From Escherichia coli (lineage in GTDB: Bacteria; Pseudomonadota; Gammaproteobacteria; Enterobacterales; Enterobacteriaceae), in assembly GCF_044324785.1 (NCBI RefSeq), contig NZ_CP172127.1: DNA of 64,000 nt; one strand, given 5' to 3'. The notes under the pieces are model-generated. The model did no database searches. It was not told the DNA's origin and saw only the letters and a list, made by a program, of their open reading frames with translations. The translations under genes and the position numbers were made by a program. Shown here piece by piece: positions 1 through 60,511 of this stretch (positions are counted from its first letter, which is position 1; each line of letters starts with the position of its first letter).

Positions 1-1322
<1,322 letters not shown>

Positions 1323-1488
1323 TTAAAAGATAACATGACAATGCATGATGAATATAACAACATATGATGTTATGTAATGTGGAGGAAGATCACAAAATTT
1401 CGCACAGGATCGCGCTGTGGCTAATGGATGTAGTTATCAAATTGAATTTAAAGTGAAAATATTTTTACGGGCGGGGGCAAGAAGGACA

Positions 1489-1525
1489 TAGAAACAAATA
1501 CGCCCTCGGAAAATCCAGAGGGCGT
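1489..1525 (-). terminator. putative intrinsic terminator downstream of yhfL
   Basis: Inverted repeat acgccctc / gagggcgt (1500-1507 / 1518-1525); on the minus-strand transcript it is followed by a U-rich run. Confidence 0.4.
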
Positions 1526-1565
1526 CGGGCAATTAAACCGGTGTTAGCCGATTTCTGTCAGAGAC

Positions 1566-1733
1566 TTACTGTGCAGTAGGACCGCAACCGCCAATGATTT
1601 TAGAAATAGAAATTGCCGGGTGCAGCAGGTAGTCGTAAGAGCAGTTCTTATCACGGTTTTCAATATGACCAGTACATGCAGTTAACGTAGCCAGTACCGC
1701 ACCTACCAGTGCAACTTTAATAAATTTGTTCAT
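1566..1733 (-). CDS. yhfL: small lipoprotein, 55 aa
   Basis: Manual translation MNKFIKVALVGAVLATLTACTGH...GGCGPTAQ; signal peptide with lipobox LTAC; below the 60-aa cutoff of the ORF track. Confidence 0.7.
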   Translation of the reverse strand: MNKFIKVALVGAVLATLTACTGHIENRDKNCSYDYLLHPAISISKIIGGCGPTAQ

Positions 1734-1979
1734 TTACATTCCCTATGTATTATATATTGATTAATATTCATTGTTTATATGAATATAAGCAGACTGCTCA
1801 TTAAGAACGATACAGGAATATTTAATTGGCGTCAGTGAGTGAATGGCTTAATTTTGTAAGTCGCTGTAACGGTGAATATAACCCATTAGCAGATAATATT
1901 TATTAAGGGGTTATGTTTTATTTGCTGAATATATAAAAAGAGTCATTAAGAAGGCCAGAATTCTCTGGCCCGGGTTACA

Positions 1980-3353
1980 TTAATGGTTGGAGAACCAGTT
2001 CAGTTTATCGCGCAGGCCAACAACCCGACCAATAATAATTAGCGATGGACTGTTCATTTGCTGCGCTAGTTCGCCCAGCTGTGTGAGCGTACCGTCAATC
2101 ACGCGCTGCGTGACTGCTGTTCCGTTTTCGACAATTGCCACCGGCATTTCGCCAGGCATACCGTGTTCAATCAGCTTTTGCTGAATGGTCGCGGCCTGAT
2201 TCAGCCCCATATAGAACACCAGCGTCTGTTTTTCTGCCGCCAGGTTTTCCCAGTCCAGCTCGCCACCGGTTTTTAAGTGTCCGGTAATTAAGCGTACGCT
2301 CTGGGCATAATCGCGATGCGTGAGCGGAATACCCGAATAGGCAGAGCAACCAGAAGCTGCGGTAATACCCGGAACCACCGAGAACGGAATACCCGCGTTG
2401 CACAGTGTTTCCAGCTCTTCGCCACCACGGCCAAAAATAAACGGATCGCCACCTTTCAGCCGCACCACGCGTTTGCCTTTTTGCGCTTCCCGCAGCAGGA
2501 TCTGGTTTATCTCTTCCTGCGGTACGCAGTGGTATCCCGCGCGTTTGCCGACGAAAACGCGATCAGCATCGCGGCGTACCAGATTCATAATATCGTCAGA
2601 AACTAGACGGTCGTAGACCACCACATCTGCCTGCTGAATTTGTTGCAGACCTTTCAGTGTCAGCAGCCCGGCATCGCCCGGACCTGCGCCAACCAGCACC
2701 ACTTCACCGCGATGGTCGAGCGGTTCGTTGATTAACTGTTCGGTCGTTTCAGTAATGGCTTTCTGATCGTTGTTTGCCAGCGACTGCGCCAGACGGTCAT
2801 TAACGAACAGTTTTTCCCAGAAACGGCGACGTTCACCCATTGTTGCGAACTGTTGTTTCACTCGACCGCGTAATTGCCCGGCGTATTTCGCTACCTGGCC
2901 CAGATGCAACGGCAGCAGTGATTCAAGTTTTTCACGCAACAGGCGTGCCAGAACCGGAGAGGTGCCGCCAGAGGAGACCGCGACCATGAGCGGTGAGCGG
3001 TCAATAATCGACGGCATAATAAAGCTGGCGGCTTTCGGCGCATCGACCACGTTACAGAAGATGCGACGAGCTTCAGCGGCTTCACTGACGCGCTGGTTAA
3101 GCGCGTCATCATCCGTCGCAGCAATCGCCAGCCAGCAGGTGTCGAGAAGGCTTTCATCAAATGGCCCTTCGACGAGGGTTAACATGCCTGCATCTGCCCA
3201 TGCGGTGAACTGCGGAATAAACGCTAATGCATTCACCGTTAAGCGAGCGCCTGCGTCTAACAGTAACCTTGCTTTGCGTTCCGCGACATCACCACCGCCG
3301 ACAATCAGACAGTCGCGATCGCGTAATTGGCAAAATATAGGCAAATGATCCAC
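1980..3353 (-). CDS. cysG: siroheme synthase (uroporphyrinogen-III methyltransferase / precorrin-2 dehydrogenase / ferrochelatase)
   Basis: 457 aa ORF, N-term [31 protein letters not shown]; length and sequence match CysG. Confidence 0.95.
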
Positions 3354-3371
3354 GTAAAAACCCCTTAGTAA

Positions 3372-4178
3372 TTAACCGGCAGCTGTTTCAGTTTGATTAA
3401 ATTTGTCCGCAACCGGACGATTCGCTTTCGGCGTAGCATACCAATAACCCAATCCCATGAATACGGCACCTGATAAAGTATTACCCAGCGTCACCCACAG
3501 CAGGTTATGACCAATACCCGCCAGCGTGTAGGCTTCGCTGTGGTTGCCAAACCAGGAGAGGGCGAACAGCGTCATGTTAGCGATGGAGTGCTCGTAGCCG
3601 GACGCGATAAATGCCAGCAGACACCACCAGATAGCGATAAATTTCGCCGCCCCTTCAGTGCGCAGCGCCATCCAGATAGCCAGGCAAACCAGCCAGTTAC
3701 ACAATGCACCTTTGAAGAACAGTACCATTGCCGGTGCAGTGGTTTTAGCCAGCGCGACGGAGTGAACGATGCTGGTATCTACCGGCAGCAGGCTACCGCC
3801 ACCCCAGCTATAGAGCATGGCAACGAAGACGGAACCGACCAGGTTACCCAGCCAGGTTTGCGGCAGGATTGCCCACATTTGCCCGTGGCTGATAGTGCCT
3901 GCTTTCACCCCAAAGGTGAGGAACATGGTGTGTCCGGTGAACAGTTCAGAACCAGCAATAATGACCAGCGTTAAGGCGATACCAAAGGTCGCACCCATCA
4001 CCAGAGGACGTACGGACGGATCGAGCAAATTACCGAGCGTGAAAATCAGGATGATCCCAAGACCCACATACGCCCCCGCCATGGCGGAGCTGACCCAGAA
4101 GCCGAGCGGGTTATTTGCCGACAGGCGTGCAATGCGCGCAGCGTTAGCCGCACACTTATTAATAGTGTCTGTAAACAT
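3372..4178 (-). CDS. nirC: nitrite transporter (FNT family)
   Basis: 268 aa ORF, multi-TM; position between nirD and cysG. Confidence 0.93.
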   Translation of the reverse strand: MFTDTINKCAANAARIARLSANNPLGFWVSSAMAGAYVGLGIILIFTLGNLLDPSVRPLVMGATFGIALTLVIIAGSELFTGHTMFLTFGVKAGTISHGQMWAILPQTWLGNLVGSVFVAMLYSWGGGSLLPVDTSIVHSVALAKTTAPAMVLFFKGALCNWLVCLAIWMALRTEGAAKFIAIWWCLLAFIASGYEHSIANMTLFALSWFGNHSEAYTLAGIGHNLLWVTLGNTLSGAVFMGLGYWYATPKANRPVADKFNQTETAAG

Positions 4179-4270
4179 TTGATTATCCTTAAAAAAATAA
4201 AAACAAAAAAATAAAACAAAAAGTTTAAAAAATGTCCTGCAATATACCGAAGGTTATTACAGGACCATGC

Positions 4271-4294
4271 AAAAAGGGGAGGCATTGCGCCTCC
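4271..4294 (-). terminator. hairpin plus U-run immediately downstream of nirD (possible intra-operon attenuator)
   Basis: ggaggc-attgc-gcctcc inverted repeat at 4278-4294, followed on the transcript by UUUUU (plus 4271-4275) and a long U-rich tract before nirC. Confidence 0.35.
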
Positions 4295-4304
4295 TGTTAA
4301 AACA

Positions 4305-4631
4305 TTAACCGCGCAGCTGTACCACGCCGTCTTTCACTCGTGCTTCGTAGTGCTTGACGGAAAACTGTTCGTCTTCCATGCACAAGCCGTCGCTTAAGCG
4401 AAAACGCTGTTTTTTCAGCGGGCTGGCGACCCACAGCTCGCCCTGATGTTCCGCAATCAGCCCGCGTGACAGCACGCTGGACTCGAAGAACGGATCGATG
4501 TTGCTGATCGCAAACACCTGGTCGCTGTGATATGGGCGGAAAATCGCGACCTGCTCGTCACCTAACAGCGCGCAGACGCCGGTTTCAGGCAGGATGTCAT
4601 CGATTTTGCAGATGTCTTTCCACTGGCTCAT
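4305..4631 (-). CDS. nirD: nitrite reductase small subunit (Rieske-like)
   Basis: 108 aa ORF MSQWKDICKIDDILPETG; 4-nt overlap with nirB stop. Confidence 0.95.
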   Translation of the reverse strand: MSQWKDICKIDDILPETGVCALLGDEQVAIFRPYHSDQVFAISNIDPFFESSVLSRGLIAEHQGELWVASPLKKQRFRLSDGLCMEDEQFSVKHYEARVKDGVVQLRG

Positions 4632-7171
4632 GCGTTGTCCTCCACCAGAGTTACCGGGATACGTTCATACGGCGTTGCCGGACGGTGCTGTTCGCGCTCT
4701 GGCACCATCTGCACGTTCGGGTCACGCTTGTCGCTGTTGATGAAGTGTTTGAAGCGAGTCTGCGCAGACGGCGTATTGACCGTTTCAGTCCACTCACACA
4801 CTACCGCTTCACGCAGGCGCGCCATCTCTTCTTCCAGATGAGCGTTCAGCCCCAGTTTGTCGTCAATGATCACCGCTTTCAGGTAATCGATGCCGCCTTC
4901 GAGGTTTTCTAACCACGGTGCGGTACGCGTCAGTTTGTCGGCAGTACGGATGTAGAACATCATGAAGCGGTCGAGATATTTGATCAGCGTTTCGCGATCG
5001 ATATCCGCCGCCAGCAGATCCGCATGACGCGGTTTCATGCCGCCGTTACCGCAAACATACAGGTTCCAGCCTTTTTCAGTGGCGATAATACCCACGTCTT
5101 TACCCTGAGCTTCTGAACATTCACGGGTACAGCCGGAGACACCGAACTTCATTTTGTGCGGCGTACGGATGCCTTTGTAGCGGTTTTCCAGTTCCACGCC
5201 GAGGCCCACGCTATCGCCCACGCCGTAGCGGCACCAGGTGCTACCCACGCAGGTTTTCGCCATACGCAGTGCTTTCGCATAGGCATGACCGGTTTCGAAG
5301 CCGGCTTCAATCAGCTGACGCCAGATCTCCGGCAGATCGTCTTTCTGTGCGCCAAACATCGCCAGGCGCTGGGAGCCGGTGATTTTGGTGTAGAGATTAA
5401 ATTCACGCGCGATACGACCCACCGCCATCAGCCCTTCCGGGGTGATTTCACCGCCCGGAGAACGCGGGATCACCGAGTAGGTGCCGTCTTTCTGGATGTT
5501 AGCGAGGAAGTTATCGTTAGAATCCTGCAGCGGAGTATGTTCCGGCTTCAGAATGTATTCGTTCCAGCAGGAGGCCAGCAGCGAACCGACGGTCGGTTTA
5601 CAAACTTCACAACCGTAGCCTTTGCCGTGTTTCGCCAGCAGTTCTTCGAAGGTTTTAATGCCTTCAACGCGGATTAAATGGAACAGTTCCTGACGCGAAT
5701 AAGCAAAGTGTTCGCACAGGTTGTTGTTAACTTCGATGCCCTGTTTCGCCAGTTCCGCGTTCAGTACCTGAGTGACCAGCGGGATACAGCCACCGCAGCC
5801 AGTACCCGCTTTGGTTTCAGCTTTCAGCGCCGCAACGGTGTGGCAGCCTTTGTTGATAGCAGCAATCAGGTCGCCTTTGGTGACGTCGAAGCAGGAGCAG
5901 ATTTGCGCGCTGTCCGGCAGTTTATCAACACCGATAGACGGCTTACCGCTACCAGAGTGCGCCGGCAGAATCAGAGAATCCGGGTTTTCCGGCAGCTCGA
6001 TAGCGTTCAGCACCAGTTGCAGCAGGTTACCGTAGTCGCTGGTATCGCCCACCAGTACCGCACCGAGCAGGGTTTTGTTGTCTTCGCTGACAATCAGGCG
6101 TTTGTAGATCTCTTTGCTTTCGTCGAGGTAAACGTAGCTACGTGCGCCAGGCGTGCGACCGTGCGCATCACCAATACCGCCTACGTCTACGCCCAGCAGT
6201 TTCAGCTTGGCGCTAAGGTCAGCACCTTCAAAGGCGTTTTCGCTGCCAAGAATATGGTCAACGGCGACCTGCGCCATTTTGTAGCCTGGTGCTACCAGAC
6301 CAAATACACGGTTGTTCCAGCTTGCGCATTCACCGATGGCGTAGATATCCGGATCGGAAGTCTGGCAGGAATCATTTATGACGATACCCCCACGCGGAGC
6401 AACGTCCAGACCACACTGGGTTGCCAGCTTATCGCGCGGACGGATACCGGTAGAGAAGACGATAAAGTCGACTTCCAGTTCGCTGCCGTCGGCAAAACGC
6501 ATGGTTTTACGCGCTTCAACACCTTCCTGCACAATCTCAAGGGTGTTTTTGCTGGTGTGAACGCGCACGCCCATACTTTCGATTTTGCGACGCAGCTGCT
6601 CGCCGCCCATCTGATCAAGCTGTTCCGCCATCAGCATAGGGGCAAATTCGATAACGTGGGTTTCAATACCTAAGTTTTTCAGCGCGCCAGCGGCTTCCAG
6701 ACCTAACAGGCCGCCGCCAACAACGGCACCACGTTTGCTGCGACGGGCGCAGGATTCAATGGCGTTGAGGTCTTCAATGGTGCGGTAGACAAAGCAGTCC
6801 TGGGTATCAGAACCTTTAATTGGCGGGATCCACGGGTAGGAACCGGTCGCCATGATCAGCTTGTCATAAAAAACGGTGCGCCCGGCGCTGGAGTGAATCA
6901 CCTTCTCCTGACGGTTGATGGTGATAGCGCGTTCGCCGACCAGAACTTTGATACCGTGTTTCTCGTAGAAGCCTTCGCGCACCAGCGACAGCTCTTCGGC
7001 GGTGTGGTGAGAGAAGTAAGACGAGAGGTGTACGCGGTCATAAGCGATGCGCGGTTCTTCACAGAAAACGGTAATATCAAAGTTGGCCGCATCAGATTTA
7101 TCAAGAAGATCTTCGATAAAGCGATGGCCGACCATACCGTTACCGATAATTGCGAGTCTGACTTTGCTCAT
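4628..7171 (-). CDS. nirB: NADH-dependent nitrite reductase large subunit
   Basis: 847 aa ORF, N-term MSKVRLAIIGNGMVGHRF (FAD/NAD Rossmann); length matches NirB. Confidence 0.97.
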   Translation of the reverse strand: MSKVRLAIIGNGMVGHRFIEDLLDKSDAANFDITVFCEEPRIAYDRVHLSSYFSHHTAEELSLVREGFYEKHGIKVLVGERAITINRQEKVIHSSAGRTVFYDKLIMATGSYPWIPPIKGSDTQDCFVYRTIEDLNAIESCARRSKRGAVVGGGLLGLEAAGALKNLGIETHVIEFAPMLMAEQLDQMGGEQLRRKIESMGVRVHTSKNTLEIVQEGVEARKTMRFADGSELEVDFIVFSTGIRPRDKLATQCGLDVAPRGGIVINDSCQTSDPDIYAIGECASWNNRVFGLVAPGYKMAQVAVDHILGSENAFEGADLSAKLKLLGVDVGGIGDAHGRTPGARSYVYLDESKEIYKRLIVSEDNKTLLGAVLVGDTSDYGNLLQLVLNAIELPENPDSLILPAHSGSGKPSIGVDKLPDSAQICSCFDVTKGDLIAAINKGCHTVAALKAETKAGTGCGGCIPLVTQVLNAELAKQGIEVNNNLCEHFAYSRQELFHLIRVEGIKTFEELLAKHGKGYGCEVCKPTVGSLLASCWNEYILKPEHTPLQDSNDNFLANIQKDGTYSVIPRSPGGEITPEGLMAVGRIAREFNLYTKITGSQRLAMFGAQKDDLPEIWRQLIEAGFETGHAYAKALRMAKTCVGSTWCRYGVGDSVGLGVELENRYKGIRTPHKMKFGVSGCTRECSEAQGKDVGIIATEKGWNLYVCGNGGMKPRHADLLAADIDRETLIKYLDRFMMFYIRTADKLTRTAPWLENLEGGIDYLKAVIIDDKLGLNAHLEEEMARLREAVVCEWTETVNTPSAQTRFKHFINSDKRDPNVQMVPEREQHRPATPYERIPVTLVEDNA

Positions 7172-7229
7172 TTTTGCCTCGATTTCTTTTCTATTACCGC
7201 CTACCTTAACGATTCAGCAACCCCGCTTA

Positions 7230-7243
7230 TTGATGTAAATCAA
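7230..7243 (-). promoter_or_regulatory. FNR binding site of the nirB promoter (about -41.5)
   Basis: Perfect TTGAT-N4-ATCAA palindrome ttgatgtaaatcaa centred about 65 bp upstream of the nirB ATG. Confidence 0.8.
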
Positions 7244-7256
7244 ATTCACCTTTATA

Positions 7257-7272
7257 TACTCCTTAAGGGGTA
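7257..7272 (-). promoter_or_regulatory. NarL/NarP 7-2-7 heptamer pair of the nirB promoter (about -69.5)
   Basis: TACTCCT-ta-AGGGGTA inverted heptamers (TACYYMT consensus) centred 28 bp upstream of the FNR site centre. Confidence 0.75.
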
Positions 7273-7432
7273 TATTGCTGATTTGTATAAATTTTCTTAA
7301 GTCACGGAATTGTCTGACATTTCATGTTTGTGCAAAAAACAGACAAAATGAACGGGTTTATAGAAATAGATGTACGTAGCAGGGTAAGAGAGGAAAAGGC
7401 CGGACGACGATAGCGCCGCCCGGCATGAGCAA

Positions 7433-8614
7433 TTAATGAGAGGTCAGGGTGTTATGCTGACGGTGACGGCTGACGAAACCTAACAGGAAGCACATCACAA
7501 AGACGACAGCGTACAGACCGTTTGCTGTAAGCAGTGCCGCCTGCGGACCGCTATGTTCAACAATCGGGCCGGTAACCACAAAGGTCAACATAGTACCGAT
7601 GGTCCCGCAGGTCAGGACAAAGTTAACCAGTTTTGGCGACGGTACTTTGGTCTGCTGTGAACCCAGGGTGATGATGGTGGTATAGATCGCGCTGGAGAAG
7701 AAGCCCAGGGCGAGAATTGACCACGCCATATGTGCCGGTGTTCCGGTGTTAAAGACGTACATCAGAATCGCAGCCAGACCAGCCAGTACGGTCAGGATAC
7801 GTTGCAAATCAAAGAAGCGAAGAATAAAGCTGAACGCCCACATGCCGACCATATATGACATCCAGAAGTTACTCACCAGCGTGCCCGCGTCGTTCAGGCT
7901 CATGCCCAGGCCTTTGGCATACTCCGGCACCCAGGAGATAAAACCTAACTGACCGAGGATGTAGCACAGCGCCGCAACAGAGAGAAACAGCACGCCGATC
8001 CCCCATTTTTCTTTCACTACCGGAGCATCCGTTTTTGGCGCATGTTTGCCCAGCGCCGGGAACTCACAACCGAAGGTCAGAATAAAAATAGCGACATACA
8101 CCAGCCCGATGCAGGCATAAACCCAGTACCACTCAATGCTGCGCGCCAGTAGAAACGCGGCGATCATTGGGAAAATCATCCCAGCCATACTGAAGAAGGA
8201 GTCGGTAAATAACAGGCGGGAACCGCGCTGACGCCCTTCATACATTTGTGTTATCAGGAATGTACCAATCGACATGGTGATGCCGCTGACCACCCCGAGA
8301 ATGAACATCGCCGCCGAGAACAGCGCCAGGCTGTGGCTGAACATCAAACCGGCAACCGCCAGCACCATCAGGAGAAAGCCAAAACGTAACTGCGTTTTCA
8401 ACGGGACGATTTCCATCAGCCAGGCGTTGAGGAAGATAGAGATTAAAATGCCGGCGTTGAGGAAGGTGAAGGTATTACTCATACTGGAAACAGGCAGATT
8501 GAAATAATCGGCGATATTTCCCATCACCATCCCGGTGACAATAACCAACGCACCGGTCAGTGCGTAGGAGAGAAAGCTAATCCATGTGAGCTTGATGCGA
8601 TTGCTGTTAGTCAT
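7433..8614 (-). CDS. tsgA: MFS-family membrane protein TsgA
   Basis: 393 aa [24 protein letters not shown], 12-TM pattern. Confidence 0.9.
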
Positions 8615-8875
8615 GATTGGCCTGCGTTCAAAAATAAAATGGCATAGCGGGATATGCCGCGAGCGGGCGATTTTAGGTGATTTTGTGATCTGTTTAAATG
8701 TTTTATTGCAATCGGTTGCTAAATTGCATTTTAAGAGGTGATTTTGATCGCAGAATAAAAAGTGATCGTCAGGTTACATATATTTCAGATACGTAAAATT
8801 AGGTAAAGGGATGGCCTTGTTCTTGAAGGCTATTTAGAATCTCTTCACTTGCTTTTTTTCTGCTCTGTTTGTTAA

Positions 8876-9457
<582 letters not shown>

Positions 9458-9465
9458 TGATTTCT

Positions 9466-9494
9466 CGCGCGGGCAATCTTGCCCGCGCTTCTGC
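9466..9494 (+). terminator. putative ppiA terminator hairpin
   Basis: cgcgcgggc-aatctt-gcccgcgc stem-loop 9 bp after the ppiA stop; weak T-run. Confidence 0.45.
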
Positions 9495-9561
9495 TCTCCC
9501 GGCGTAACCCGGATTTGCCGCTTATACTTGTGGCAAATGGACACGTTCAGGGAGGCATCAA

Positions 9562-9729
9562 GTGAAGAAACTCACCGATAAGCAAAAGTCCCGTCTCTGG
9601 GAACTTCAGCGTAATCGTAATTTCCAGGCCAGTCGCCGTCTTGAAGGCGTCGAGATGCCTTTAGTCACTCTTACTGCCGCAGAGGCTTTAGCGCGCCTTG
9701 AAGAGCTGAGGAGGCACTATGAGCGATAA
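9562..9729 (+). CDS. yhfG: small protein YhfG (antitoxin-like partner of Fic), 55 aa, GTG start
   Basis: Manual translation [55 protein letters not shown]; overlaps the fic start by 11 nt. Confidence 0.7.
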
Positions 9730-10321
9730 ATTCGGCGAAGGGCGCGATCCGTATCTTTATCCTGGCCTTGATATCATGCGTAACCGGCTGAACATCCGCC
9801 AGCAGCAGCGGCTGGAACAGGCCGCTTACGAAATGACGGCGCTGCGTGCTGCGACCATTGAGCTTGGTCCGCTGGTGCGCGGTTTACCGCATTTGCGCAC
9901 TATCCATCGCCAGCTGTATCAGGATATTTTCGACTGGGCAGGGCAACTGCGTGAAGTTGATATTTATCAGGGCGATACGCCGTTCTGCCACTTTGCCTAT
10001 ATCGAAAAAGAGGGCAATGCCCTGATGCAGGATCTGGAGGAAGAAGGTTATCTGGTTGGCCTGGATAAAGCGAAGTTCGTCGAGCGGCTGGCACATTACT
10101 ATTGTGAAATCAACGTGCTGCATCCCTTCCGTGTGGGAAGCGGACTGGCACAGCGGATCTTCTTCGAGCAGCTGGCGATTCATGCGGGCTACCAACTGAG
10201 CTGGCAGGGTATCGAAAAAGAGGCCTGGAATCAGGCAAATCAGAGTGGGGCAATGGGGGATCTCACCGCGCTGCAGATGATATTTAGCAAAGTGGTAAGC
10301 GAAGCCGGGGAATCTGAGTAA
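9719..10321 (+). CDS. fic: Fic-family protein (adenylyltransferase)
   Basis: 200 aa ORF; Fic motif [12 protein letters not shown] present. Confidence 0.93.
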
Positions 10322-10352
10322 AATAGCGCGGTTCTTTCGTACCGGAGCCGCC

Positions 10353-10916
10353 ATGATCCTGCTTATAGATAACTACGATTCTTTTACCTGGAACCTCTAC
10401 CAGTACTTTTGTGAACTGGGGGCGGATGTGCTGGTTAAGCGCAACGATGCGTTGACGCTGGCGGATATCGACGCCCTTAAACCACAAAAAATTGTCATCT
10501 CACCCGGACCCTGTACGCCAGATGAAGCCGGGATCTCCCTTGACGTTATTCGCCACTATGCCGGGTGCTTGCCGATTCTTGGCGTTTGCCTCGGTCATCA
10601 GGCAATGGCGCAGGCATTTGGCGGTAAAGTTGTGCGCGCCGCAAAGGTCATGCACGGCAAAACCTCGCCGATTACACATAACGGTGAGGGCGTATTTCGG
10701 GGGCTGGCAAATCCACTTACCGTGACACGCTACCATTCGCTGGTGGTGGAACCTGACTCATTACCAGCGTGCTTTGAAGTGACGGCCTGGAGCGAAACCC
10801 GCGAGATTATGGGGATTCGCCATCGCCAGTGGGATCTGGAAGGTGTGCAGTTCCACCCGGAAAGTATTCTCAGCGAACAAGGACATCAACTGCTGGCTAA
10901 TTTCCTGCATCGCTGA
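10353..10916 (+). CDS. pabA: aminodeoxychorismate synthase glutamine amidotransferase subunit
   Basis: 187 aa [22 protein letters not shown]; class-I GATase catalytic Cys in GVCLGHQ. Confidence 0.95.
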
Positions 10917-10986
10917 TTTCTGATTGCTATTAAGTGATTTTTTATGCATATTTTGTGATTGTAATTTCATGTTGGTTTATGCGTAA

Positions 10987-12225
<1,239 letters not shown>

Positions 12226-12287
12226 GACGCATCAGGCAAAAGATGTCGGATGCGGCGTGAACGCTGTATCCGATGGTTTAGCCTGCA
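12226..12287. repeat. REP/PU (BIME-like) element between argD and yhfK
   Basis: gacgcatcaggc ... tgtcggatgcggcgtgaacgctgtatccgatgg closely resembles the GCCGGATGCGGCGTGAACGCCTTATCCGGCCTAC palindromic unit. Confidence 0.7.
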
Positions 12288-14378
12288 TTACGCCTTCGAA
12301 TCCCGCAACTTGCGACTCAGCCAAATCCCGTGATGCGGTCGCTGACGCCATGCCATCGACGAAATGGTGTGCATGGTGTTCAGATGACCAATAACCCGCT
12401 GTAAATGCTGCTCCAGCGTACCTGCCGCGCCTTCGTGCGGCTGCATCTCCGGCGCATCCATGATATTGGCATCGCCGGAACTACCCGGTTCGTCATACTC
12501 CAGTCGCTGCTGACAACGCTGAATGGCGATTTCACAAGACTGTAAATACTCTTGTGCCAGTTCAGGTGGCAATGCCCGGTGTTCCCGCGCCAGCGTGGTC
12601 ATGGCATTAATATGCTCAACAATAAACTGGCTGTGCGTTACCCACAGTTTCATATCTGCCAGATAATGGCTGTTAAACGCCGGTTCCTGCATCGCCTGAT
12701 TCAATGAGTTATACAGAGTGTTATGCGCCTGATTTACCCGCATTCGCTGCCAGGCCAGTGGCGTAGGTTGCGGGTCCTCGCTCAGAATCAAGCGAATTGC
12801 TTCCTGATAGGCTTCTAAAGCGTCATGGGCGTTCTTACGCAATAACCCGCTCTGCCACTGCGGCCACAGCCAGACGGTACCACCGAAAGCAATTAAACAA
12901 CCAATAATGGTATCAATAAGACGTGGAAGGATGTACTGCTCACCGTTCAACCACAACAGTTGCAGGGTATACACTGCGGTAATGGTAAAACCGACCGTCG
13001 CCCAGCCGTAGTTTTTGCGCAATATCAGGTAGCTGGCGAGGGTGGTAATCAGCATCAACGTCAGGGTGTAACCTTCGGGAATTTTAAAGTGCAGGGCAAC
13101 GCCCGCAATGATTAACCCGACCACGGTTCCCACGGAGCGATTCACAATCCTCAGACGGGTTGCGCCATAGCCATTTTGCGTCACCAGCAATACCGTCATC
13201 AGGATCCAGTACGACTTCGGCAGATGCAGCGCGGTGCCCATCAGGCTGGCAACGCTTAACATCACACTGAGTCGTCCGGCATTGCGTAGCGCCGGAGACT
13301 TTAGTGACAGATAACTTTTCAGTGCCGGAAGTAACGGCATTCGCCGCTGTTTATCGGCCAGTAAGTCACGGGCATAGAGCGGTTTTTGGGTGCGCAGCAC
13401 GCGGGCGATGCGGCTGAAATGCCAATAGCAGAATTGCCCAACCGGATTATCCGGATGCTGGCGGGCGATTTTTTCCAGTGCGCCAATTTGCTTTTCCATC
13501 GTAAAACGCGTCGGCAGGCGATGGTAAAGAATGTCATCAGCCAGCACGCGCAGGCGAGCGGCGACGGTTTGCGCATTCCAGCGGATAACTTCTTCTGCAT
13601 GGCTACGCTCGACCAGCTTTTGCACCTCTTCCGGCTGATGCAAACTGACCGAAATATGTTCCTGCAAATCCAGCGCCTCCTGGAAAATACGCAGCATCCG
13701 CTTGTAATCGTTATTATTTTGCGCGGAAAGCATATGCATTTGCTGATAGCACTGGGTAATTAGATCGACCGCTTTTTGCTGGCGCACCAGCAGCGGCGGC
13801 AGCGCTTTTTCAGGGTCGGTGTGCTGGGTAAGCAGGCTGTATTTGGCTTCACAATAATCTGCCAGTTCACGGTACAGCAGACTTAGTGACTCGCGCAGCG
13901 GTTGTTCGCGCCAGATCCAGAACCAAAACCAGTTAAACAATCCGTACCAGAGAGTGCCCAACGCATAGATGAGCAACGGTTCCCAGACCGGCATGTATCC
14001 CGCCAGACTGAGGGTAAAAATGGCGGCGAGCAGCGATGCGGGAAGCAATTTTGCGTGCAATGGCCCCAGCTCAGCAGTGACGCCAAGTACCAGCGTTAGT
14101 CCAGTCAGCAAAAAGGGCAAGGGAACATCTTTTGCCAGTAACAGCTGTGTCAGCAAGCTACAGGTGGCAAACAGCGACGCACCAATGATTAAGCGTTTGA
14201 AAAAACGTTTATGAGGCGTATCAAGGCCCGCAATATTGCAACAGGCAGGAACGAGGGAGAAGAGCAGACCGAATCGTAATTCGCCAAGCATTAACCCAAT
14301 GGCCACGGGCAAACATAGCACCAGCGTTTGTCGCAGTGCATAGTTAATATCGGGGTGATAAATCAGTCTGCGCCACAT
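12288..14378 (-). CDS. yhfK: inner-membrane protein YhfK (FUSC-like)
   Basis: ORF track gives 700 aa from a TTG; the first ATG (14378-14376, MWRRLIYHP) gives 696 aa. Confidence 0.85.
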   Translation of the reverse strand: MWRRLIYHPDINYALRQTLVLCLPVAIGLMLGELRFGLLFSLVPACCNIAGLDTPHKRFFKRLIIGASLFATCSLLTQLLLAKDVPLPFLLTGLTLVLGVTAELGPLHAKLLPASLLAAIFTLSLAGYMPVWEPLLIYALGTLWYGLFNWFWFWIWREQPLRESLSLLYRELADYCEAKYSLLTQHTDPEKALPPLLVRQQKAVDLITQCYQQMHMLSAQNNNDYKRMLRIFQEALDLQEHISVSLHQPEEVQKLVERSHAEEVIRWNAQTVAARLRVLADDILYHRLPTRFTMEKQIGALEKIARQHPDNPVGQFCYWHFSRIARVLRTQKPLYARDLLADKQRRMPLLPALKSYLSLKSPALRNAGRLSVMLSVASLMGTALHLPKSYWILMTVLLVTQNGYGATRLRIVNRSVGTVVGLIIAGVALHFKIPEGYTLTLMLITTLASYLILRKNYGWATVGFTITAVYTLQLLWLNGEQYILPRLIDTIIGCLIAFGGTVWLWPQWQSGLLRKNAHDALEAYQEAIRLILSEDPQPTPLAWQRMRVNQAHNTLYNSLNQAMQEPAFNSHYLADMKLWVTHSQFIVEHINAMTTLAREHRALPPELAQEYLQSCEIAIQRCQQRLEYDEPGSSGDANIMDAPEMQPHEGAAGTLEQHLQRVIGHLNTMHTISSMAWRQRPHHGIWLSRKLRDSKA

Positions 14379-14382
14379 CGGG

Positions 14383-14416
14383 GGAAACAAAATGGCGCGC
14401 TACCAGGTAACGCGCC
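14383..14416 (-). terminator. crp intrinsic terminator
   Basis: ggcgcgctacc-a-ggtaacgcgcc hairpin 13 bp after the crp stop, followed on the transcript by UUUUGUUUCCC. Confidence 0.65.
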
Positions 14417-14428
14417 ACTCCGACGGGA

Positions 14429-15061
14429 TTAACGAGTGCCGTAAACGACGATGGTTTTACCGTGTGCGGAGATCAGGTTCTGATCTTCCAGCATCTTCAG
14501 AATGCGTCCCACGGTTTCACGAGAACAGCCAACAATCTGACCGATTTCCTGACGGGTAATTTTGATTTGCATACCGTCCGGGTGAGTCATAGCATCCGGT
14601 TGTTTTGCCAGGTTCAGCAGAGTCTGTGCAATGCGGCCCGTCACGTCGAGGAACGCCAGGTTGCCCACTTTCTCTGAAGTGACTTGCAGGCGACGCGCCA
14701 TCTGTGCAGACAGACGCATCAGAATGTCCGGGTTTACCTGAATCAATTGGCGAAATTTTTTGTACGAAATTTCAGCCACTTCACAGGCGGTTTTCGCACG
14801 TACCCATGCGCTACGTTCCTGGCCCTCTTCAAACAGGCCCAGTTCGCCAATAAAATCACCCTGATTCAGATAGGAGAGGATCATTTCTTTACCCTCTTCG
14901 TCTTTGATCAGCACTGCCACAGAGCCTTTAACGATGTAGTACAGCGTTTCCGCTTTTTCACCCTGGTGAATAAGCGTGCTCTTGGATGGGTACTTATGAA
15001 TGTGGCAATGAGACAAGAACCATTCGAGAGTCGGGTCTGTTTGCGGTTTGCCAAGCACCAT
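14429..15061 (-). CDS. crp: cAMP receptor protein (global regulator)
   Basis: 210 aa [53 protein letters not shown] with C-terminal HTH. Confidence 0.98.
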
Positions 15062-15362
15062 GCGCGGTTATCCTCTGTTATAAGCTTTCTCCAGAGCCAG
15101 ATAACGCCGCTGTCTCTGGATTGCCGAAATATGCTTCCCGCTACCTGGGAAGGGGCTATCAACTGTACTGCACGGTAATGTGACGTCCTTTGCATACATG
15201 CAGTACATCAATGTATTACTGTAGCATCCTGACTGTTTTAGCATAGCTTTCGCTTTGTGTCTCCTGGTGTCTCGCTTCAGCATGACCCAGGTCGCCTTCC
15301 GTTGCGCGATTTGGTTAGTACGCGTACTCTGTCAGGAAAATTGACGCAGTGGAGTAGCAAAA
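15062..15362. promoter_or_regulatory. crp / yhfA divergent control region (long crp 5' UTR, autoregulatory CRP site)
   Basis: 301 bp gap between divergent genes; CRP-like half sites TGTGAcgtcctTTGCA near 15180-15195. Confidence 0.5.
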
Positions 15363-15767
15363 ATGCAAGCGCGAGTGAAGTGGGTCGAAGGGTTAACTTT
15401 TCTGGGCGAATCCGCCTCTGGTCACCAGATTTTAATGGACGGCAACTCAGGCGATAAAGCACCAAGTCCGATGGAAATGGTGTTGATGGCGGCGGGTGGT
15501 TGCAGTGCCATTGATGTGGTTTCTATTCTGCAAAAAGGGCGTCAGGATGTGGTCGATTGTGAAGTAAAATTGACCTCTGAACGCCGCGAAGAGGCACCAC
15601 GCCTGTTTACGCACATTAATCTGCATTTTATCGTCACCGGTCGCGACCTGAAAGACGCAGCGGTTGCGCGTGCGGTAGATCTCTCTGCCGAGAAATATTG
15701 TTCAGTGGCGTTGATGCTGGAAAAAGCGGTGAATATTACTCACTCGTATGAAGTGGTTGCCGCGTGA
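15363..15767 (+). CDS. yhfA: OsmC-family protein YhfA
   Basis: 134 aa ORF MQARVKWVEGLTFLGESASGH. Confidence 0.9.
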   Translation: MQARVKWVEGLTFLGESASGHQILMDGNSGDKAPSPMEMVLMAAGGCSAIDVVSILQKGRQDVVDCEVKLTSERREEAPRLFTHINLHFIVTGRDLKDAAVARAVDLSAEKYCSVALMLEKAVNITHSYEVVAA

Positions 15768-15787
15768 TTTAACTATCCCATTGTGAA

Positions 15788-15809
15788 GCCGGATAGTATT
15801 TTATCCGGC
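15788..15809. terminator. hairpin between convergent yhfA and prkB (possible bidirectional terminator)
   Basis: gccggata-gtattt-tatccggc inverted repeat; no strong T-run. Confidence 0.35.
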
Positions 15810-15821
15810 GTAATAGCAAAG

Positions 15822-16691
15822 TTACTCGATTTTCTTTCCTTCCATCAATCGTTGCACCAGCGGCAGCATAATTAATTCCATTGCCAGACCCATTTTGCCG
15901 CCCGGTACCACTAACGTATTGATGTGGGAAATGAATGAGCCTTGCAACATCGCCAGCAGCCAGGGAAAATCGATCCCTTCCAGATTACGAAAATGGATCA
16001 CCACAAAGCTTTCATCCAGCGACGGGATACCTTTTGCCGCGAACGGGTTTGAAGTGTCGACGGTGGGAACGCGCTGGAAGTTAAGATGGGTGCGGGAAAA
16101 CTGCGGTGTGATGTAGTTGATATAGTCTTCCATTGAACGCACTACCGAGTCCATCACTGCTTCTCGTGAGTGCCCGCGCTCGCTGGTGTCGCGGATCAGT
16201 TTTTGAATCCACTCAAGGTTAACGATAGGCACCACGCCGACCAGTAAGTCCACATGCTGCGCAACGTTATGCTGTGGCGTGACTACGCCGCCGTGTAAAC
16301 CTTCATAAAACAGTACATCAGTGGGTTCCGGTAAAGGTTGCCATGGGGTGAATGTCCCAGGTACCTGATTCCACGGTACGGCTTCGTCGTAGGTATGCAG
16401 ATATTTGCGAGATTTCCCTTTGCCGCTCTGACCATATTCAATGAAGGTTTGTTCCAGCAGGCCAAAGTCGTTCGCTTCGGGGCCGAAGTAGCTGATATGC
16501 CGCCCGGCGTCGCGTGCTTTGCGGATCGCCATGTCCATTTCCGGGCGTGTGTAACGGTGAAAACTGTCGCCTTCCACCTCGGCTGCATGCAGATTTAACT
16601 GCGCGAATATTTTACGAAACGCGAGGCTGGTGGTGGTGGTCCCCGCGCCGCTGGATCCTGTTACCGCAATGACCGGATGTTTGGCAGACAT
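15822..16691 (-). CDS. prkB: phosphoribulokinase homolog
   Basis: 289 aa ORF, P-loop VIAVTGSSGAGTTTTS. Confidence 0.93.
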   Translation of the reverse strand: MSAKHPVIAVTGSSGAGTTTTSLAFRKIFAQLNLHAAEVEGDSFHRYTRPEMDMAIRKARDAGRHISYFGPEANDFGLLEQTFIEYGQSGKGKSRKYLHTYDEAVPWNQVPGTFTPWQPLPEPTDVLFYEGLHGGVVTPQHNVAQHVDLLVGVVPIVNLEWIQKLIRDTSERGHSREAVMDSVVRSMEDYINYITPQFSRTHLNFQRVPTVDTSNPFAAKGIPSLDESFVVIHFRNLEGIDFPWLLAMLQGSFISHINTLVVPGGKMGLAMELIMLPLVQRLMEGKKIE

Positions 16692-16744
16692 AGTAACTCC
16701 ATGACTTAGCTATCATTATTATCTCGTCCGCCGACGGTTGCAGG

Positions 16745-16963
16745 TTATTCGCGAAACTGACTGCGCGGCATGATATTGACCGTTTCGTGCAGCTCCGACC
16801 ATACCAGCACCGCTTCTCCGCACTGTAGCTGGCGTTTGACGTCGGCGACTTTCTGTTCAAGTGTACGCTCATGTTCACCATAATCGGTGCCTTCACGTAA
16901 CACAAAGCTTTCAATTAAATTTTCCAGCGTTTCGGGGGAGAGGTCTTGCCACGGAATCAACAT
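16745..16963 (-). CDS. yheU: UPF0270 protein YheU
   Basis: 72 aa [32 protein letters not shown]. Confidence 0.9.
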
Positions 16964-17979
16964 GATTTCGCCTCCAGATACGTTGTTAACCAGTCAGGAA
17001 TGCGTGACTCCAGCCACATTTGCGGATGAAGTAACGTACCGCCAATAAAGCCAACATGACCGCCATGTTCAGTCAGTTGATACTCCACCTGCGGGGGGAG
17101 ACTTTCCGGTTTCGGGATCACCTGATGATCCATAAACGGATCGTCTTTGGCGTGAATAATCAGCGTCGGTTTGGCGATCCGGTTCAGCATCGGCATGGCG
17201 CTACACTGACGATAATAGTCGATAGCGTCAGCGTAGCCGTGAATTCTGGCGGTGATGAGATCGTCAAATTCACGGATGCGACGTACCGATTTTAACTGCG
17301 CGAGATTAATCGGCAGTGTTCCGGGGTAGGCTGCCAGCTTGCGCGCGGCATTGGCTTTTAACAGGTTCAGCAAGTAACGCTGATAAACGCGGGAAAAGCC
17401 CTTTTCCATATGGTAACTACAGGCCTCCAGCATAAATGGCGCGGAGACAATTACCGCTGCATCAATCGGGAGGTTATTACCTTCTTTTGCCAGCAAACAG
17501 GCCAGCATATTACCGCCGAGCGAATAGCCGACGGCAGCCGTTGGCGCATGACCAAATTCGCGTTGCAGCCAGCGTAAAAACCAGCTGGCGTCTTCGGTTT
17601 CGCCCGAATGGTAAATGCGGTGCATACGGTTTGGTTCACCGCTGCATCCGCGAAAATGCATCACCACGCCCAGCCAGCCACGCTTTTGCGCCGCCTCAAC
17701 CAGACCGTGGGCGTAAGGGCTATTGAGACTGCCTTCGAGCCCGTGAAACACGACTAAACGCGGTTTATGCCGCGCCTGTGCAGGATCTTCACTCCACGCG
17801 AGATCGACAAAATCGCCGTCGGGCAACTCCAGTCGCTGCCAGTGCGGGGTGAATTTCACCTTGCGACGAAACAGACGCGGCAGCATGGTTTGTAGATGAC
17901 AATTGCTAAAGCCGCGCATGGGGGTGAATTCAGCACTGCTGCTGAATTCATTGGCATCGGTCGTCGTTATCTGCGCCAT
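16957..17979 (-). CDS. yheT: alpha/beta hydrolase YheT
   Basis: 340 aa [21 protein letters not shown]; ATG overlaps the displaced yheS stop (TGATG). Confidence 0.93.
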
Positions 17980-18074
17980 CAGTTGCTTTGGCCTTCCAGC
18001 AGCATCTGCTCAAGCTGCTCCTGGGCTTCCAGCCATGCCATTTCGCACTCTTCCAGGCCGGATTTGGCGCTGGC
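17979..18074 (-). pseudogene. yheS: displaced 3' fragment of yheS (last 30 codons plus stop), separated from the gene body by the IS
   Basis: Minus-strand translation of 18071-17982 gives SAKSGLEECEMAWLEAQEQLEQMLLEGQSN then stop, the native YheS C-terminus; no start codon of its own. Confidence 0.85.
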
Positions 18075-18829
<755 letters not shown>

Positions 18830-18933
18830 ATCAGCATACTTGTCCTTAGCCTTCTGCAGTGACAGCTGGTAGTACAGCGTGCTTCTGGCCAGCCCTGCAG
18901 CCTTTAACAGGTCAGACTGGCAGTGTCCGCACC

Positions 18934-19464
18934 TCAGGCTCCGGATGACTTTCGTTTTTTCTCCAGCTCCTGGCGCTTTTTTTCCAGGAGATGCTCCTGC
19001 ATGGCTTTCAGATATGCATTTTCTGCGCGAAGATAACGCAGCTCATTCTTCATCTCTTCCGGCGTCATGTTTGCCTCGTTTTCATGGGTATCATCAGAAC
19101 GGGTCATGCTTTTCTCCTTCCTGCGCCTGATAAAGGCCTCATTACCAGATTTGCGGTAGCCTTTTATCCAGTTTTTAACCGTGTTGTGGCTGGGAATGTT
19201 AAACCGGGCAGCTACCCGGGGTAGAGACTCAGAATGCCCGAGAGCATAAAGAACCACGCAAAGTTTATCTTCAGGAGAATAGCTACGCTTGTGTCTGCAA
19301 TCCAGTGCCCGAGGACCGTGAAGAAGAAAAAGATTAATCCAGTGTGAGAGGCTGGTGTGAGAAAGTTGAAAGAGTTTTGCCGTAGAAATGATGCCTGCAT
19401 GACCAGCCAGGTAATGATTTACAGCGGCAAGTTTTACTTCAAATGAATGTTTCATAAACTGCAC
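18934..19464 (-). CDS. IS transposase OrfA (HTH DNA-binding, leucine-zipper-like C-terminus)
   Basis: 176 aa ORF; size and motif KHSFEVKLAAVNHY typical of IS150-group OrfA. Confidence 0.85.
   Translation of the reverse strand: MQFMKHSFEVKLAAVNHYLAGHAGIISTAKLFQLSHTSLSHWINLFLLHGPRALDCRHKRSYSPEDKLCVVLYALGHSESLPRVAARFNIPSHNTVKNWIKGYRKSGNEAFIRRRKEKSMTRSDDTHENEANMTPEEMKNELRYLRAENAYLKAMQEHLLEKKRQELEKKRKSSGA
18976..18982 (-). other. programmed -1 ribosomal frameshift site A_AAA_AAG
   Basis: Transcript reads CUG GAA AAA AAG CGC in the orfA frame; the -1 frame is open from here through orfB. Confidence 0.7.
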
Positions 19465-21328
19465 CTTCAGATGTCAGATTATGTCCAACATTTGGGGTGC
19501 AGTTCATGGCTTGCTGTTGCAGGCATGCGGTCAGTTCTGCTTTACGGCTTTGATCGTACAGTTCGCTGTCGCCGAGTTTCTCTTCCGCCTGCGCCAGCTG
19601 TGCGTTCAGCTTCTCCATCTCTTTTTCCAGACGGGCAATCTCTTTACGCAGTGGCTGGGTTTGCGCACGCAGCTCCGCTTCCCGACGCTTCTGATCTTTA
19701 CGTGCCTGGGCGCTGTTCGCGTTCTCTTTTGGCGAGTCGTCGGCCTGGTTTTCCTGCTTTTGTACGTCGCTCAACCACTGTTGATAATCTTCCAGATCGC
19801 CGTCGAACGGTTCGACTTTACGATCGTGAACCAGGTAGAGATCGTCAGTGGTGGAACGCAGCAAATGACGGTCGTGCGAGACGACAACCAGCGCGCCTTC
19901 GAACTCGATTAATGCTTCGGTGAGAGCCTGACGCATGTCGAGGTCAAGGTGGTTGGTCGGTTCGTCGAGCAGCAGCAGATTCGGACGCTGCCAGACGATT
20001 AATGCCAGCACCAGGCGGGCTTTTTCCCCACCGGAAAAGCGGCGCGTTTCTTCCGTCACTTTATCGCCCTGGAAACCAAAGCCGCCGAGGTAGTCACGCA
20101 GTTTTTGTTCCAGTTCCTGCGGCGCTAAACGTGCCAGATGTTGAATAGGCGATTCGTCGGCGCGCAGGTATTCCAGTTGATGCTGGGCGAAGTAGCCGAG
20201 CTTGATCCCTTTCGCCAGATCAATTTCACCGCTGACTGGCGCAAGTTCGCCGGCTAACAGTTTGATTAATGTCGATTTACCCGCGCCGTTGCGGCCTAAC
20301 AGACCAATGCGCGAGCCGGGGACCAGATTCAGTTTAATCGAGTCGAGAATAATGCGATCACCATAGCCTGCGCTGACTTTTTCCATCTTTAATAACGGAT
20401 TAGGCAGGCTTTCCGGCGCGCGGAAGCTAAAACGAAACGGGTTGTCAACGTGCGCGGGGGCAATCAGCTCCATACGCTCGAGCATCTTAATGCGGCTCTG
20501 GGCCTGCTTCGCTTTGGTGGCTTTGGCACGGAAACGGTCGATATAACTTTGCAGATGCGCCACGCGTTCCTGCTGGCTTTCGTACATCGCTTGTTGCTGC
20601 GCCAGACGGGTGGCGCGCTGCACTTCAAACGAACTGTAGTTGCCGGTGTACTCGAACATGCTTTGTTGTTCGATATGAATAATTTTATCAACGATCGGAT
20701 CGAGGAAGTCGCGGTCGTGAGAGATCAGGATCAGCGTGCCCTGATAGCTCTTCAGCCATTTTTCCAGCCAGATAACGGCATCGAGATCGAGGTGGTTAGT
20801 CGGTTCGTCGAGCAGCAGCAAGTCTGAACGGCAAATCAGCGCCTGGGCAAGGTTAAGACGCATACGCCAGCCCCCGGAAAAATCACTTACCGGGCGCTCC
20901 AGTTGTTCATTGCTGAAACCGAGGCCGTGCAGCAGGCTGGCGGCGCGGGAGCGAATACTCCATGCGTCGATAGCATCCAGCTTGCCATGAATGGTCGCAA
21001 TGGCGTGCCCGTCGTTACGTTCGTTGGCGTCGTGTAGCTGCGCTTCCAGTTGACGATATTCACGGTCGCCGTCAATGACATATTCCAGCGCCGCTTGCGG
21101 TAACGCCGGCGTTTCCTGATTCACCCACGCCAGTTGCCAGCTTCCCGGAAAGGTGTAGCTGCCGCCGTCGGCGCTGATTTCATTTTTCAGCAATGCCAGC
21201 AGGGTAGATTTACCACAGCCGTTTTTACCCACCAGGCCGACTTTCTGCCCGGGGTTGATGGTGGCGGTGGCATTATCCAGCAGGACGCGCACGCCGCGAC
21301 GAATTTGTAACGAGGAGAAAACAATCAT
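19439..21328 (-). pseudogene. yheS: ABC-F family ATPase YheS, interrupted after codon 607 by the IS; reading frame runs 22 codons into the IS
   Basis: 629 aa ORF with two ABC cassettes; native sequence ends ...TACLQQQA, followed by IS-encoded MNCTPNVGHNLTSEGAVYETFI and stop at 19439. Confidence 0.85.
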
Positions 21329-47048: not shown

Positions 47049-47227
47049 GATGTATGTTCTAATAAAATAGATTGGGTGGGTTGTATATTGACGTTAGTAT
47101 AAATAGTATTAATGCCGCTTGCATGAATCAAGCAAAATTTATTTATATTAGTAATATGTATTTAATTAATAAATGCATACATTATTTTTATGATTAAGGA
47201 TAATCAATAATTAAAACAGGAAGTTCT
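47049..47227. promoter_or_regulatory. AT-rich divergent gspC / gspA control region
   Basis: 179 bp AT-rich gap between divergent operons. Confidence 0.5.
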
Positions 47228-60055: not shown

Positions 60056-60145
60056 AGCCAGCCAATCTTTTGTATGTCTGTGCGTTTCCATTTGAGTATC
60101 CTGAAAACGGGCTTTTCAGCATGGAACGTACATATTAAATAGTAG

Positions 60146-60511
<366 letters not shown>

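Follow-up and report, generated by a model that had tools for sequence, protein, structure and literature searches.

The window (i.e. the whole 64-kb stretch of Escherichia coli DNA that was analysed) carries nirB, nirD, nirC and cysG on its minus strand (Table 1), and positions 4179-4304 correspond exactly to the 126-nt spacer between nirD and nirC. In the RNA, the nirD stop codon UAA is followed after 10 nt by a first hairpin (hairpin 1), CC, UUUUU, GCAUG, a second hairpin (hairpin 2), the uridine-rich tract AUUUUUUAAACUUUUUGUUUUAUUUUUUUGUUUUUAUUUUUUU and AAGGAUAAUCAA, after which the AUG of nirC is reached. Folding of the full spacer gives a z-score of -3.6 relative to shuffled sequences (0 of 200 shuffles being as good), with both hairpins predicted to be essentially always paired and the U5 run predicted to be open.

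Table 1 Features of the nirD-nirC junction in the window, and loci with insertions in the corresponding spacer
Feature	Position	Strand	Description
nirB	7171..4628	(-)	
nirD	4631..4305	(-)	
nirC	4178..3372	(-)	
cysG	3353..1980	(-)	
nirD stop codon UAA	4305..4307	(-)	first spacer base is 4304
nirC start codon AUG	4176..4178	(-)	
Hairpin 1	4278..4294	(-)	GGAGGC(4294-4289)-GCAAU-GCCUCC(4283-4278); dG -10.3 kcal/mol; from terminator scan, folding and orthology
U5 run, proximal terminator tail	4271..4275	(-)	after two C (4277-4276); predicted probability unpaired 0.88
Hairpin 2	4234..4265	(-)	GUCCUGUAAUAACC-UUC-GGUAUAUUGCAGGAC; 14 bp with one bulge, UUC loop; dG -17.5 kcal/mol
U-rich tract	4191..4233	(-)	AUUUUUUAAACUUUUUGUUUUAUUUUUUUGUUUUUAUUUUUUU; 43 nt, about 80% U; runs into the nirC ribosome-binding site
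nirC Shine-Dalgarno to first two AUG bases	4177..4190	(-)	AAGGAUAAUCAAAU
ORF from AUG in hairpin 1 loop	4046..4285	(-)	79 codons here, 33 in K-12; judged no gene
Loci with spacer repeat insertions			L007-L020; L008/L014/L015/L019/L042/L063/L067; L022-L066; L085

Elements of the nirD-nirC spacer

The original prediction for this locus, a GC-rich hairpin with UUUUU directly after the nirD stop and then a long stretch of almost only U and A, holds in its main lines. The hairpin matches the terminator scan (5 GC pairs, tail CCUUUUUG), has the predicted stability listed in Table 1, and is fully paired in both arms by prediction. The UUUUU is there as well, but is separated from the stem by two C. 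As for the stretch of U and A, 48 of the 54 positions in 4233..4180 are indeed one or the other (36 U, 12 A, 4 G and 2 C), but the prediction skipped positions 4270-4234, which hold hairpin 2. Terminator-like motifs are not rare in this region (12 found versus 7.6 ± 2.7 expected), so that the motif by itself proves nothing; it is because of its position, conservation and covariation (see below) that hairpin 1 goes beyond chance. Compared with canonical Rho-independent attenuators inside operons, with which the spacer shares a GC-rich stem-loop and U-run between cistrons that are needed unequally, both hairpins are sub-optimal as intrinsic terminators (hairpin 1 having 6 bp and a CC spacer, and hairpin 2 an AU-rich 14-bp stem), and terminator activity in Escherichia is probably partial. 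The GC-rich stem-loop with a U-rich tail that characterises such terminators is present.

Hairpin 1 lacks one stem pair that other Escherichia have, an A at 4295 standing in place of a G and leaving an A4295/C4277 mismatch where the others have a G-C pair. This leaves 6 bp and -10.3 kcal/mol, compared to -13.6 kcal/mol (i.e. a cost of about 2-3 kcal/mol), and at the same time converts GGGAGG to a perfect AGGAGG. The position is G in every other Escherichia sequence examined, and a 49-mer that includes A4295 has no exact match among 5426 complete E. coli genomes, the best match having one mismatch. An A at the equivalent position has arisen independently in S. enterica subsp. enterica (locus L085 of the sample described below). 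The K-12 spacer (125 nt) differs from that of the window in four places: hairpin 1 has a G for the A at its base, hairpin 2 a single change that is compatible with wobble pairing, and two U-runs have other lengths. The region is present in 5425 of the 5426 complete genomes and identical in none, the best match being 98.7% over 301 nt, which places the window within the E. coli/Shigella lineage and outside this set of genomes.

Hairpin 2 is AU-rich, more stable than hairpin 1, and directly abuts the AUUUUUU of the long U tract (tail AUUUUUUAAACUUUUU). Relative to the bare 81-nt spacer of S. diarizonae it is an Escherichia-specific insertion of about 43 nt inside the U-rich spacer. A 54-nt query for it finds a median of one place per genome, in at least 5001 of 5426 E. 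coli genomes; hairpin 2 is thus single-copy and therefore no dispersed repeat of the REP or ERIC type, so that the classes considered for it (REP, BIME and ERIC) are ruled out. Hairpin 2 occurs as two alleles: allele A is carried by the window, K-12, E. whittamii and others, and allele B by E. albertii, one E. coli representative and a cryptic clade. Pairing is kept in spite of differences between the two in the loop and the upper part of the stem (92% of cells paired in 9 Escherichia sequences), a basal G-C is exchanged for A-U, and within allele A all changes give wobble pairs. Given nine sequences from two clades, these patterns are suggestive rather than strong evidence of selection on the pairing of hairpin 2. 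A megablast search with allele B (taken from locus L001) against the complete E. coli genomes gave no match. It is plausible that hairpin 2 serves as a second terminator, as a 3' barrier or as a 5' cap for nirC-cysG.

The U-rich tract stands out at the scale of the whole window, in which the 54-mer 4244..4191 has, with 69% U, the highest U content on either strand (mean 0.245, standard deviation 0.069). It is a degenerate short-period repeat, in which a tandem-repeat finder recognises only a weak period-13 array. Over 4177-4232 (-) the tract is predicted to pair weakly (through A-U and G-U) with the A-rich Shine-Dalgarno/NarS site (mean probability unpaired 0.16), which may be a trivial effect of base composition or may represent a weak structure occluding the ribosome-binding site.

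The segment AAGGAUAAUCAAAU (4190..4177) is a perfect 14-nt complement of the seed AUUUGAUUAUCCUU of NarS, which is contained in the K-12 NarS annotated at 1279337-1279520. The NarS target at the nirC Shine-Dalgarno is intact in the window. A 12-mer of this site (AAGGATAATCAA) recurs at 47196-47207 (+), in an AT-rich intergenic region about 22 nt before the ATG at 47229; this copy is probably due to chance, although a second NarS-complementary site is conceivable.

Conservation across enterobacteria

The comparison covered 80 enterobacterial nirC loci, in 77 of which the nirD-nirC spacer could be delimited (30-432 nt). A homolog of hairpin 1 lies 3-10 nt past the nirD stop in about 47 of the 77 spacers, with the consensus GGGAGGCGCAAYGCCUCCC plus a U-run; 40 of the 47 aligned homologs pass the strict scan for a hairpin with a U-tail. 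The homolog occurs in Escherichia, Salmonella (loci L029 and L085), Citrobacter, Klebsiella, Leclercia and Enterobacter, as well as in Silvania, Kosakonia, Huaxiibacter, Phytobacter, Siccibacter and Chimaeribacter. Of 48 sequences aligned over a 10-pair helix, 45 are distinct; in these, 87% of the cells are paired, compared to 46-66% when the partners are slid, and two-sided changes occur in 5 of the 10 pairs. Pair 17-29, for example, is A-U in 28 sequences, G-C in 15 and unpaired in none, and pair 14-32 is G-C in 27 and C-G in 11, its sole unpaired cell being A4295-C4277 of the window. The covariation score is equalled by 0 of 500 shuffles, and the structure of hairpin 1 is therefore under selection.

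The U-rich tract is kept more widely than hairpin 1. At least 60% U is reached in some 30-nt window in 62 of the 77 spacers, and in 76 of 77 the richest window for U surpasses the richest for A, a sense-strand asymmetry which argues for a role in RNA or transcription rather than for AT-rich DNA as such. Under a relaxed criterion, a hairpin of -9 kcal/mol or lower abutting a U-rich 8-mer is found in 71 of 77 spacers (a count made without a null model); the combination is kept even where other palindromes replace hairpin 1, and its main exception is Serratia, whose spacer measures 30 nt. The distance between tract and AUG is 11-23 nt in most loci. Where CCCTCTCCC-type palindromes take the place of hairpin 1 (Cedecea, Buttiauxella and others) the tract remains beside the Shine-Dalgarno, whereas in spacers with ERIC-like insertions (nine of the 77, and S. 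enterica L085) it stays by the hairpin, at 116-217 nt from the AUG, which explains the distance of "about 200 nt" given by Wang et al. In Klebsiella the U tract is present and the NarS site GGAUAAUCAA is absent from the Shine-Dalgarno region, so that the tract is not simply an accessory of NarS and Hfq.

The spacer is also a hotspot for the insertion of repeats, with REP/BIME-like units in Citrobacter, ERIC-like elements in several genera and S. enterica, and CCCTCTCCC...GGGAGAGGG palindromes, sometimes in tandem (in spacers of up to 432 nt), in Cedecea, Buttiauxella, Superficieibacter and others, all of these classes being assigned by simple motif matching only. The length of the tract itself is unstable. 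Between close relatives the U-runs differ by one base (e.g. T6 versus T7), and in E. coli VG38-53E1 (L083 270-335) a (TTTTTA)n expansion brings the spacer to 149 nt. For this region, about 50 of 5427 E. coli records show 90-95% identity, and similar indels are presumed in these.

The Salmonella module and expression across the K-12 junction

This junction has been studied in the nirBDC-cysG operon of Salmonella by Wang, Chao, Matera, Gao and Vogel (NAR 2020; PMC7038943), who observed a weak full-length RNA of 5.4 kb next to separate species of 2.8 kb (nirBD), 2.5 kb (nirC-cysG) and 1.4 kb (cysG). The 5' ends of nirC are multiple and monophosphorylated, and map to a uridine-rich region beginning at the nirD stop; upon inactivation of RNase E the nirC-cysG species is lost and the full-length RNA accumulates (PMC7038943). 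Deletion of the stem-loop together with the U-track lowers nirBD and raises nirC-cysG, and reduces repression by NarS, an Hfq-dependent sRNA, from about 30-fold to about 5-fold, for which the uridines were suggested as an Hfq site (PMC7038943). Probing showed that NarS pairs with positions -12 to +1 of nirC, and E. coli RIL-seq supports this pairing (PMC7038943).

Judged by its sequence, position and covariation, hairpin 1 is the same element as the stem-loop of the Salmonella nirD intra-operonic terminator, i.e. an ortholog in the same operon and at the same place, a few nt past the nirD stop. Shared between the two are the core GGAGGCGCAAYGCCUCC, the U-run, the U-rich tract and the NarS target at the nirC Shine-Dalgarno, and the stability computed for the Salmonella/Citrobacter allele (-14.8 kcal/mol) is close to the published value of -14.9 kcal/mol (PMC7038943). 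The version in S. enterica subsp. enterica (L085) is AGGAGGCGCAACGCCUCC, with -12.5 kcal/mol. The differences concern the loop of hairpin 1 (GCAAU in the window versus CAA or GCAAC in Salmonella) and the layout of the remainder: Escherichia, unlike Salmonella, has the genus-specific second hairpin and a long U tract abutting the nirC Shine-Dalgarno in a spacer of 125-128 nt, whereas in S. enterica subsp. enterica an ERIC-like element separates U-track and Shine-Dalgarno within a spacer of 265 nt, and S. diarizonae has only the bare spacer mentioned above. The nirD-nirC module of Escherichia, being orthologous to one already published for Salmonella, is therefore not new.

A further likeness exists to the discoordinate decay that is driven by an sRNA and stabilised by REP elements, as in iscRSUA with RyhB (PMC7038943), where the upstream part is likewise protected at its 3' end and the downstream cistron targeted by an sRNA. 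In Escherichia, however, the protecting structure is a hairpin of the terminator type and not a REP, while REP/BIME units do occur in the same spacer in Citrobacter.

For E. coli K-12, the Rho-termination regions listed by Adams et al. (2021) include one at 3497031, which is 28 nt into nirC and has a score of 3.95 and p = 6e-12 (PMC7815308, supplementary file 2). The DirectRNA-seq reads in the 800 nt upstream and downstream of this position number 586 and 24 without treatment, and 920 and 149 with bicyclomycin (PMC7815308); recomputing the Rho score from these counts confirmed the order of the columns. The comparison of nirBD with nirC coverage that had been proposed along with the original prediction thus reveals a 24-fold fall in RNA across the junction, of which a 6-fold fall remains with Rho inhibited, although termination and differential decay look alike in steady-state counts. 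These numbers fit a Rho-independent component (be it termination or decay) in addition to a Rho-dependent one. The curated K-12 Term-seq list holds no 3' end in 3496500-3497099 under three aerobic conditions, in which the operon is poorly expressed (PMC7815308). On the opposite strand, at about 4327 (+), which corresponds to K-12 3496855 (-), there is a published Rho-dependent region antisense to the end of nirD (262 and 12 reads untreated, 405 and 66 with bicyclomycin), which implies that an antisense transcript starts within nirC and crosses the spacer.

Proposed mechanism and its alternatives

Following these comparisons, it seems likely that the spacer is the Escherichia version of the module of operon-internal terminator and uridine track, and acts in the way proposed here, which agrees with the original prediction of an attenuator or processing site by which nirC-cysG could be uncoupled from nirBD, an uncoupling that was demonstrated for the Salmonella ortholog (PMC7038943). 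Polymerase coming from the nirB promoter would meet hairpin 1 and its U-run right past the nirD stop, and in Escherichia would next encounter the second hairpin abutting the long U tract. The hairpins (hairpin 2 probably included) would act as leaky intrinsic terminators, so that only part of the transcription reaches nirC. In the RNA that is read through, RNase E would cut the single-stranded U-rich tract, after which the hairpin or hairpins at the new 3' end would shield the nirBD mRNA from 3' exonucleases, and the nirC-cysG fragment would persist as a separate species whose ribosome-binding site, at the end of the tract, can pair with the Hfq-dependent NarS. The net effect would be a level of the nitrite transporter that is lower than that of nitrite reductase and is separately regulated. 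The anatomy, orthology, covariation, intact NarS site and conservation of the U-rich tract on the sense strand come from the present analysis, whereas the RNA species, the dependence on RNase E and the deletion phenotype come from the Salmonella work of others; that the same steps operate in this genome, with a contribution of hairpin 2, is what we infer from the two combined.

Several other explanations deserve weighing against this mechanism. The element could mainly serve RNA processing and stability, with near-total read-through, a cut by RNase E, and hairpins that act as exonuclease barriers or as 5' protection of nirC-cysG. The monophosphorylated nirC 5' ends in the Salmonella U-track, the replacement of nirC-cysG by full-length mRNA once RNase E is inactivated, the K-12 Term-seq list without a 3' end at the junction (in aerobic cells) and the weakness of hairpin 1 in the window, with its U-run offset from the stem, all fit such a role. 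On the other hand, deletion of the Salmonella hairpin and U-track raised nirC-cysG, which its authors read as lost termination, and the 6-fold drop in K-12 persists under Rho inhibition. As a predominant function we regard this as a real possibility that nevertheless falls short of probable, and processing and termination are in any case not mutually exclusive roles. A more tentative possibility is that the U tract chiefly is a landing platform for a protein in the translation of nirC, either Hfq (for the annealing of NarS) or ribosomal protein S1 (as an enhancer). The loss of most NarS repression in the Salmonella deletion strain, from which its authors proposed Hfq, points in this direction, as do the short distance of the tract from the AUG in most loci and the weak pairing predicted between tract and Shine-Dalgarno; but no Hfq-CLIP peak is reported at the tract, the spacers with ERIC-like elements, including that of S. 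enterica, place it far from the AUG, and Klebsiella has the tract without the NarS site, so that it is not tied to NarS.

The Rho-termination region called just inside nirC would also fit a spacer that mainly brings about Rho-dependent polarity, through an untranslated, unstructured and G-poor pyrimidine tract combined with a poorly translated nirC start, the hairpins being incidental; NarS, by blocking the translation of nirC, would moreover expose the RNA to Rho. However, the tract is U-rich instead of C-rich (2 C in 54 nt), part of the drop is left with bicyclomycin, the covariation in both hairpins indicates selection on structure, and the 800-nt windows do not place the 3' end precisely, which makes this account unlikely as the main one. 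Far less likely still is a feature at the level of the DNA, i.e. AT-rich DNA that is curved or binds nucleoid proteins, or a promoter element for nirC inside the operon. Intrinsic curvature had been offered as an alternative in the original prediction, and the plus strand does contain six A-runs of 4-7 bp within 4191-4232, but their centres are 7, 7, 6.5, 5.5 and 9.5 bp apart and thus out of phase with the helix (10-11 bp), and the richness in U is specific to one strand over the 77 loci. A scan for sigma-70-like promoters over 1800-7600 on both strands gave no match, so that an internal nirC promoter is not supported, and the nirC 5' ends in Salmonella are processed and not primary. Least credible of all is that hairpin 1 hides the start of a small gene, 'nirE'. 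The sequence AGGAGG (in the 5' arm)-CGCA-AUG (in the loop) at 4295-4283 does open a 79-codon ORF, but only 28 of 81 spacers have the AUG (Salmonella and Citrobacter having GCAACG as the loop), the ORF varies from 6 to 79 codons across spacers (6-58 besides the window) with a frame that shifts with the lengths of the U-runs, and both the Shine-Dalgarno and the AUG are sequestered (probability unpaired 0.0). As a conserved gene it was rejected, given that neither start codon, nor frame, nor peptide is conserved. The U-run lengths, by shifting the frame, also account for the difference between the 79 codons here and the 33 in K-12, and in the window the ORF overlaps nirC in another frame. In the older literature the K-12 ORF is called 'nirE', a name given in a 1992 paper.

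NirC imports nitrite into the cytoplasm and NirBD detoxifies it, and their ratio sets the cytoplasmic nitrite level and the NO stress when cells grow anaerobically in the gut. The terminator and uridine-track module in the spacer would be the physical point at which the operon is split into separately controlled halves, a principle that has already been published for Salmonella. The comparison adds that hairpin 1 is under structural selection in many genera, that the spacer is a hotspot for repeat insertion, that Escherichia has a hairpin 2 of its own, and that the sense-strand U-rich tract is kept independently of NarS; these additions refine a known system and leave its understanding unchanged. 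Specific to the window or the genus are the G-to-A change that weakens hairpin 1, the Escherichia-only hairpin 2 and the strain-variable lengths of the U-runs. Taken together, the hairpins might form a tandem attenuator with a slippage-prone U tract, in which variation between strains tunes read-through, the access of RNase E and Hfq, and the dosage of the nitrite transporter. This is a speculative extension with a small chance of being correct; if it were true, the U tract would work as a rheostat that can evolve rather than as a fixed signal, with alleles of hairpin 1 of the A4295 type varying as well.

Beyond the junction, the best complete E. coli genome covers 93% of the first 20 kb (window 1-20000), in two pieces at 98.5% identity, and in some records up to 40 matching places are found, which suggests that a repeated (IS-like) element is inserted within this part of the window, and that the DNA stems from a Shigella-like or divergent E. 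coli. Searched by E-value against Rfam 15, the interval 3300-5000 gave sub-threshold matches only (sroE with 15.1 bits versus 51 and IsrM with 19.7 versus 376). At gathering scores the spacer was without any match in a search of the whole window, the sole family found being the ordinary leader of the alpha ribosomal-protein operon (Alpha_RBS) at 60076-60187 (+), with 102.7 bits.
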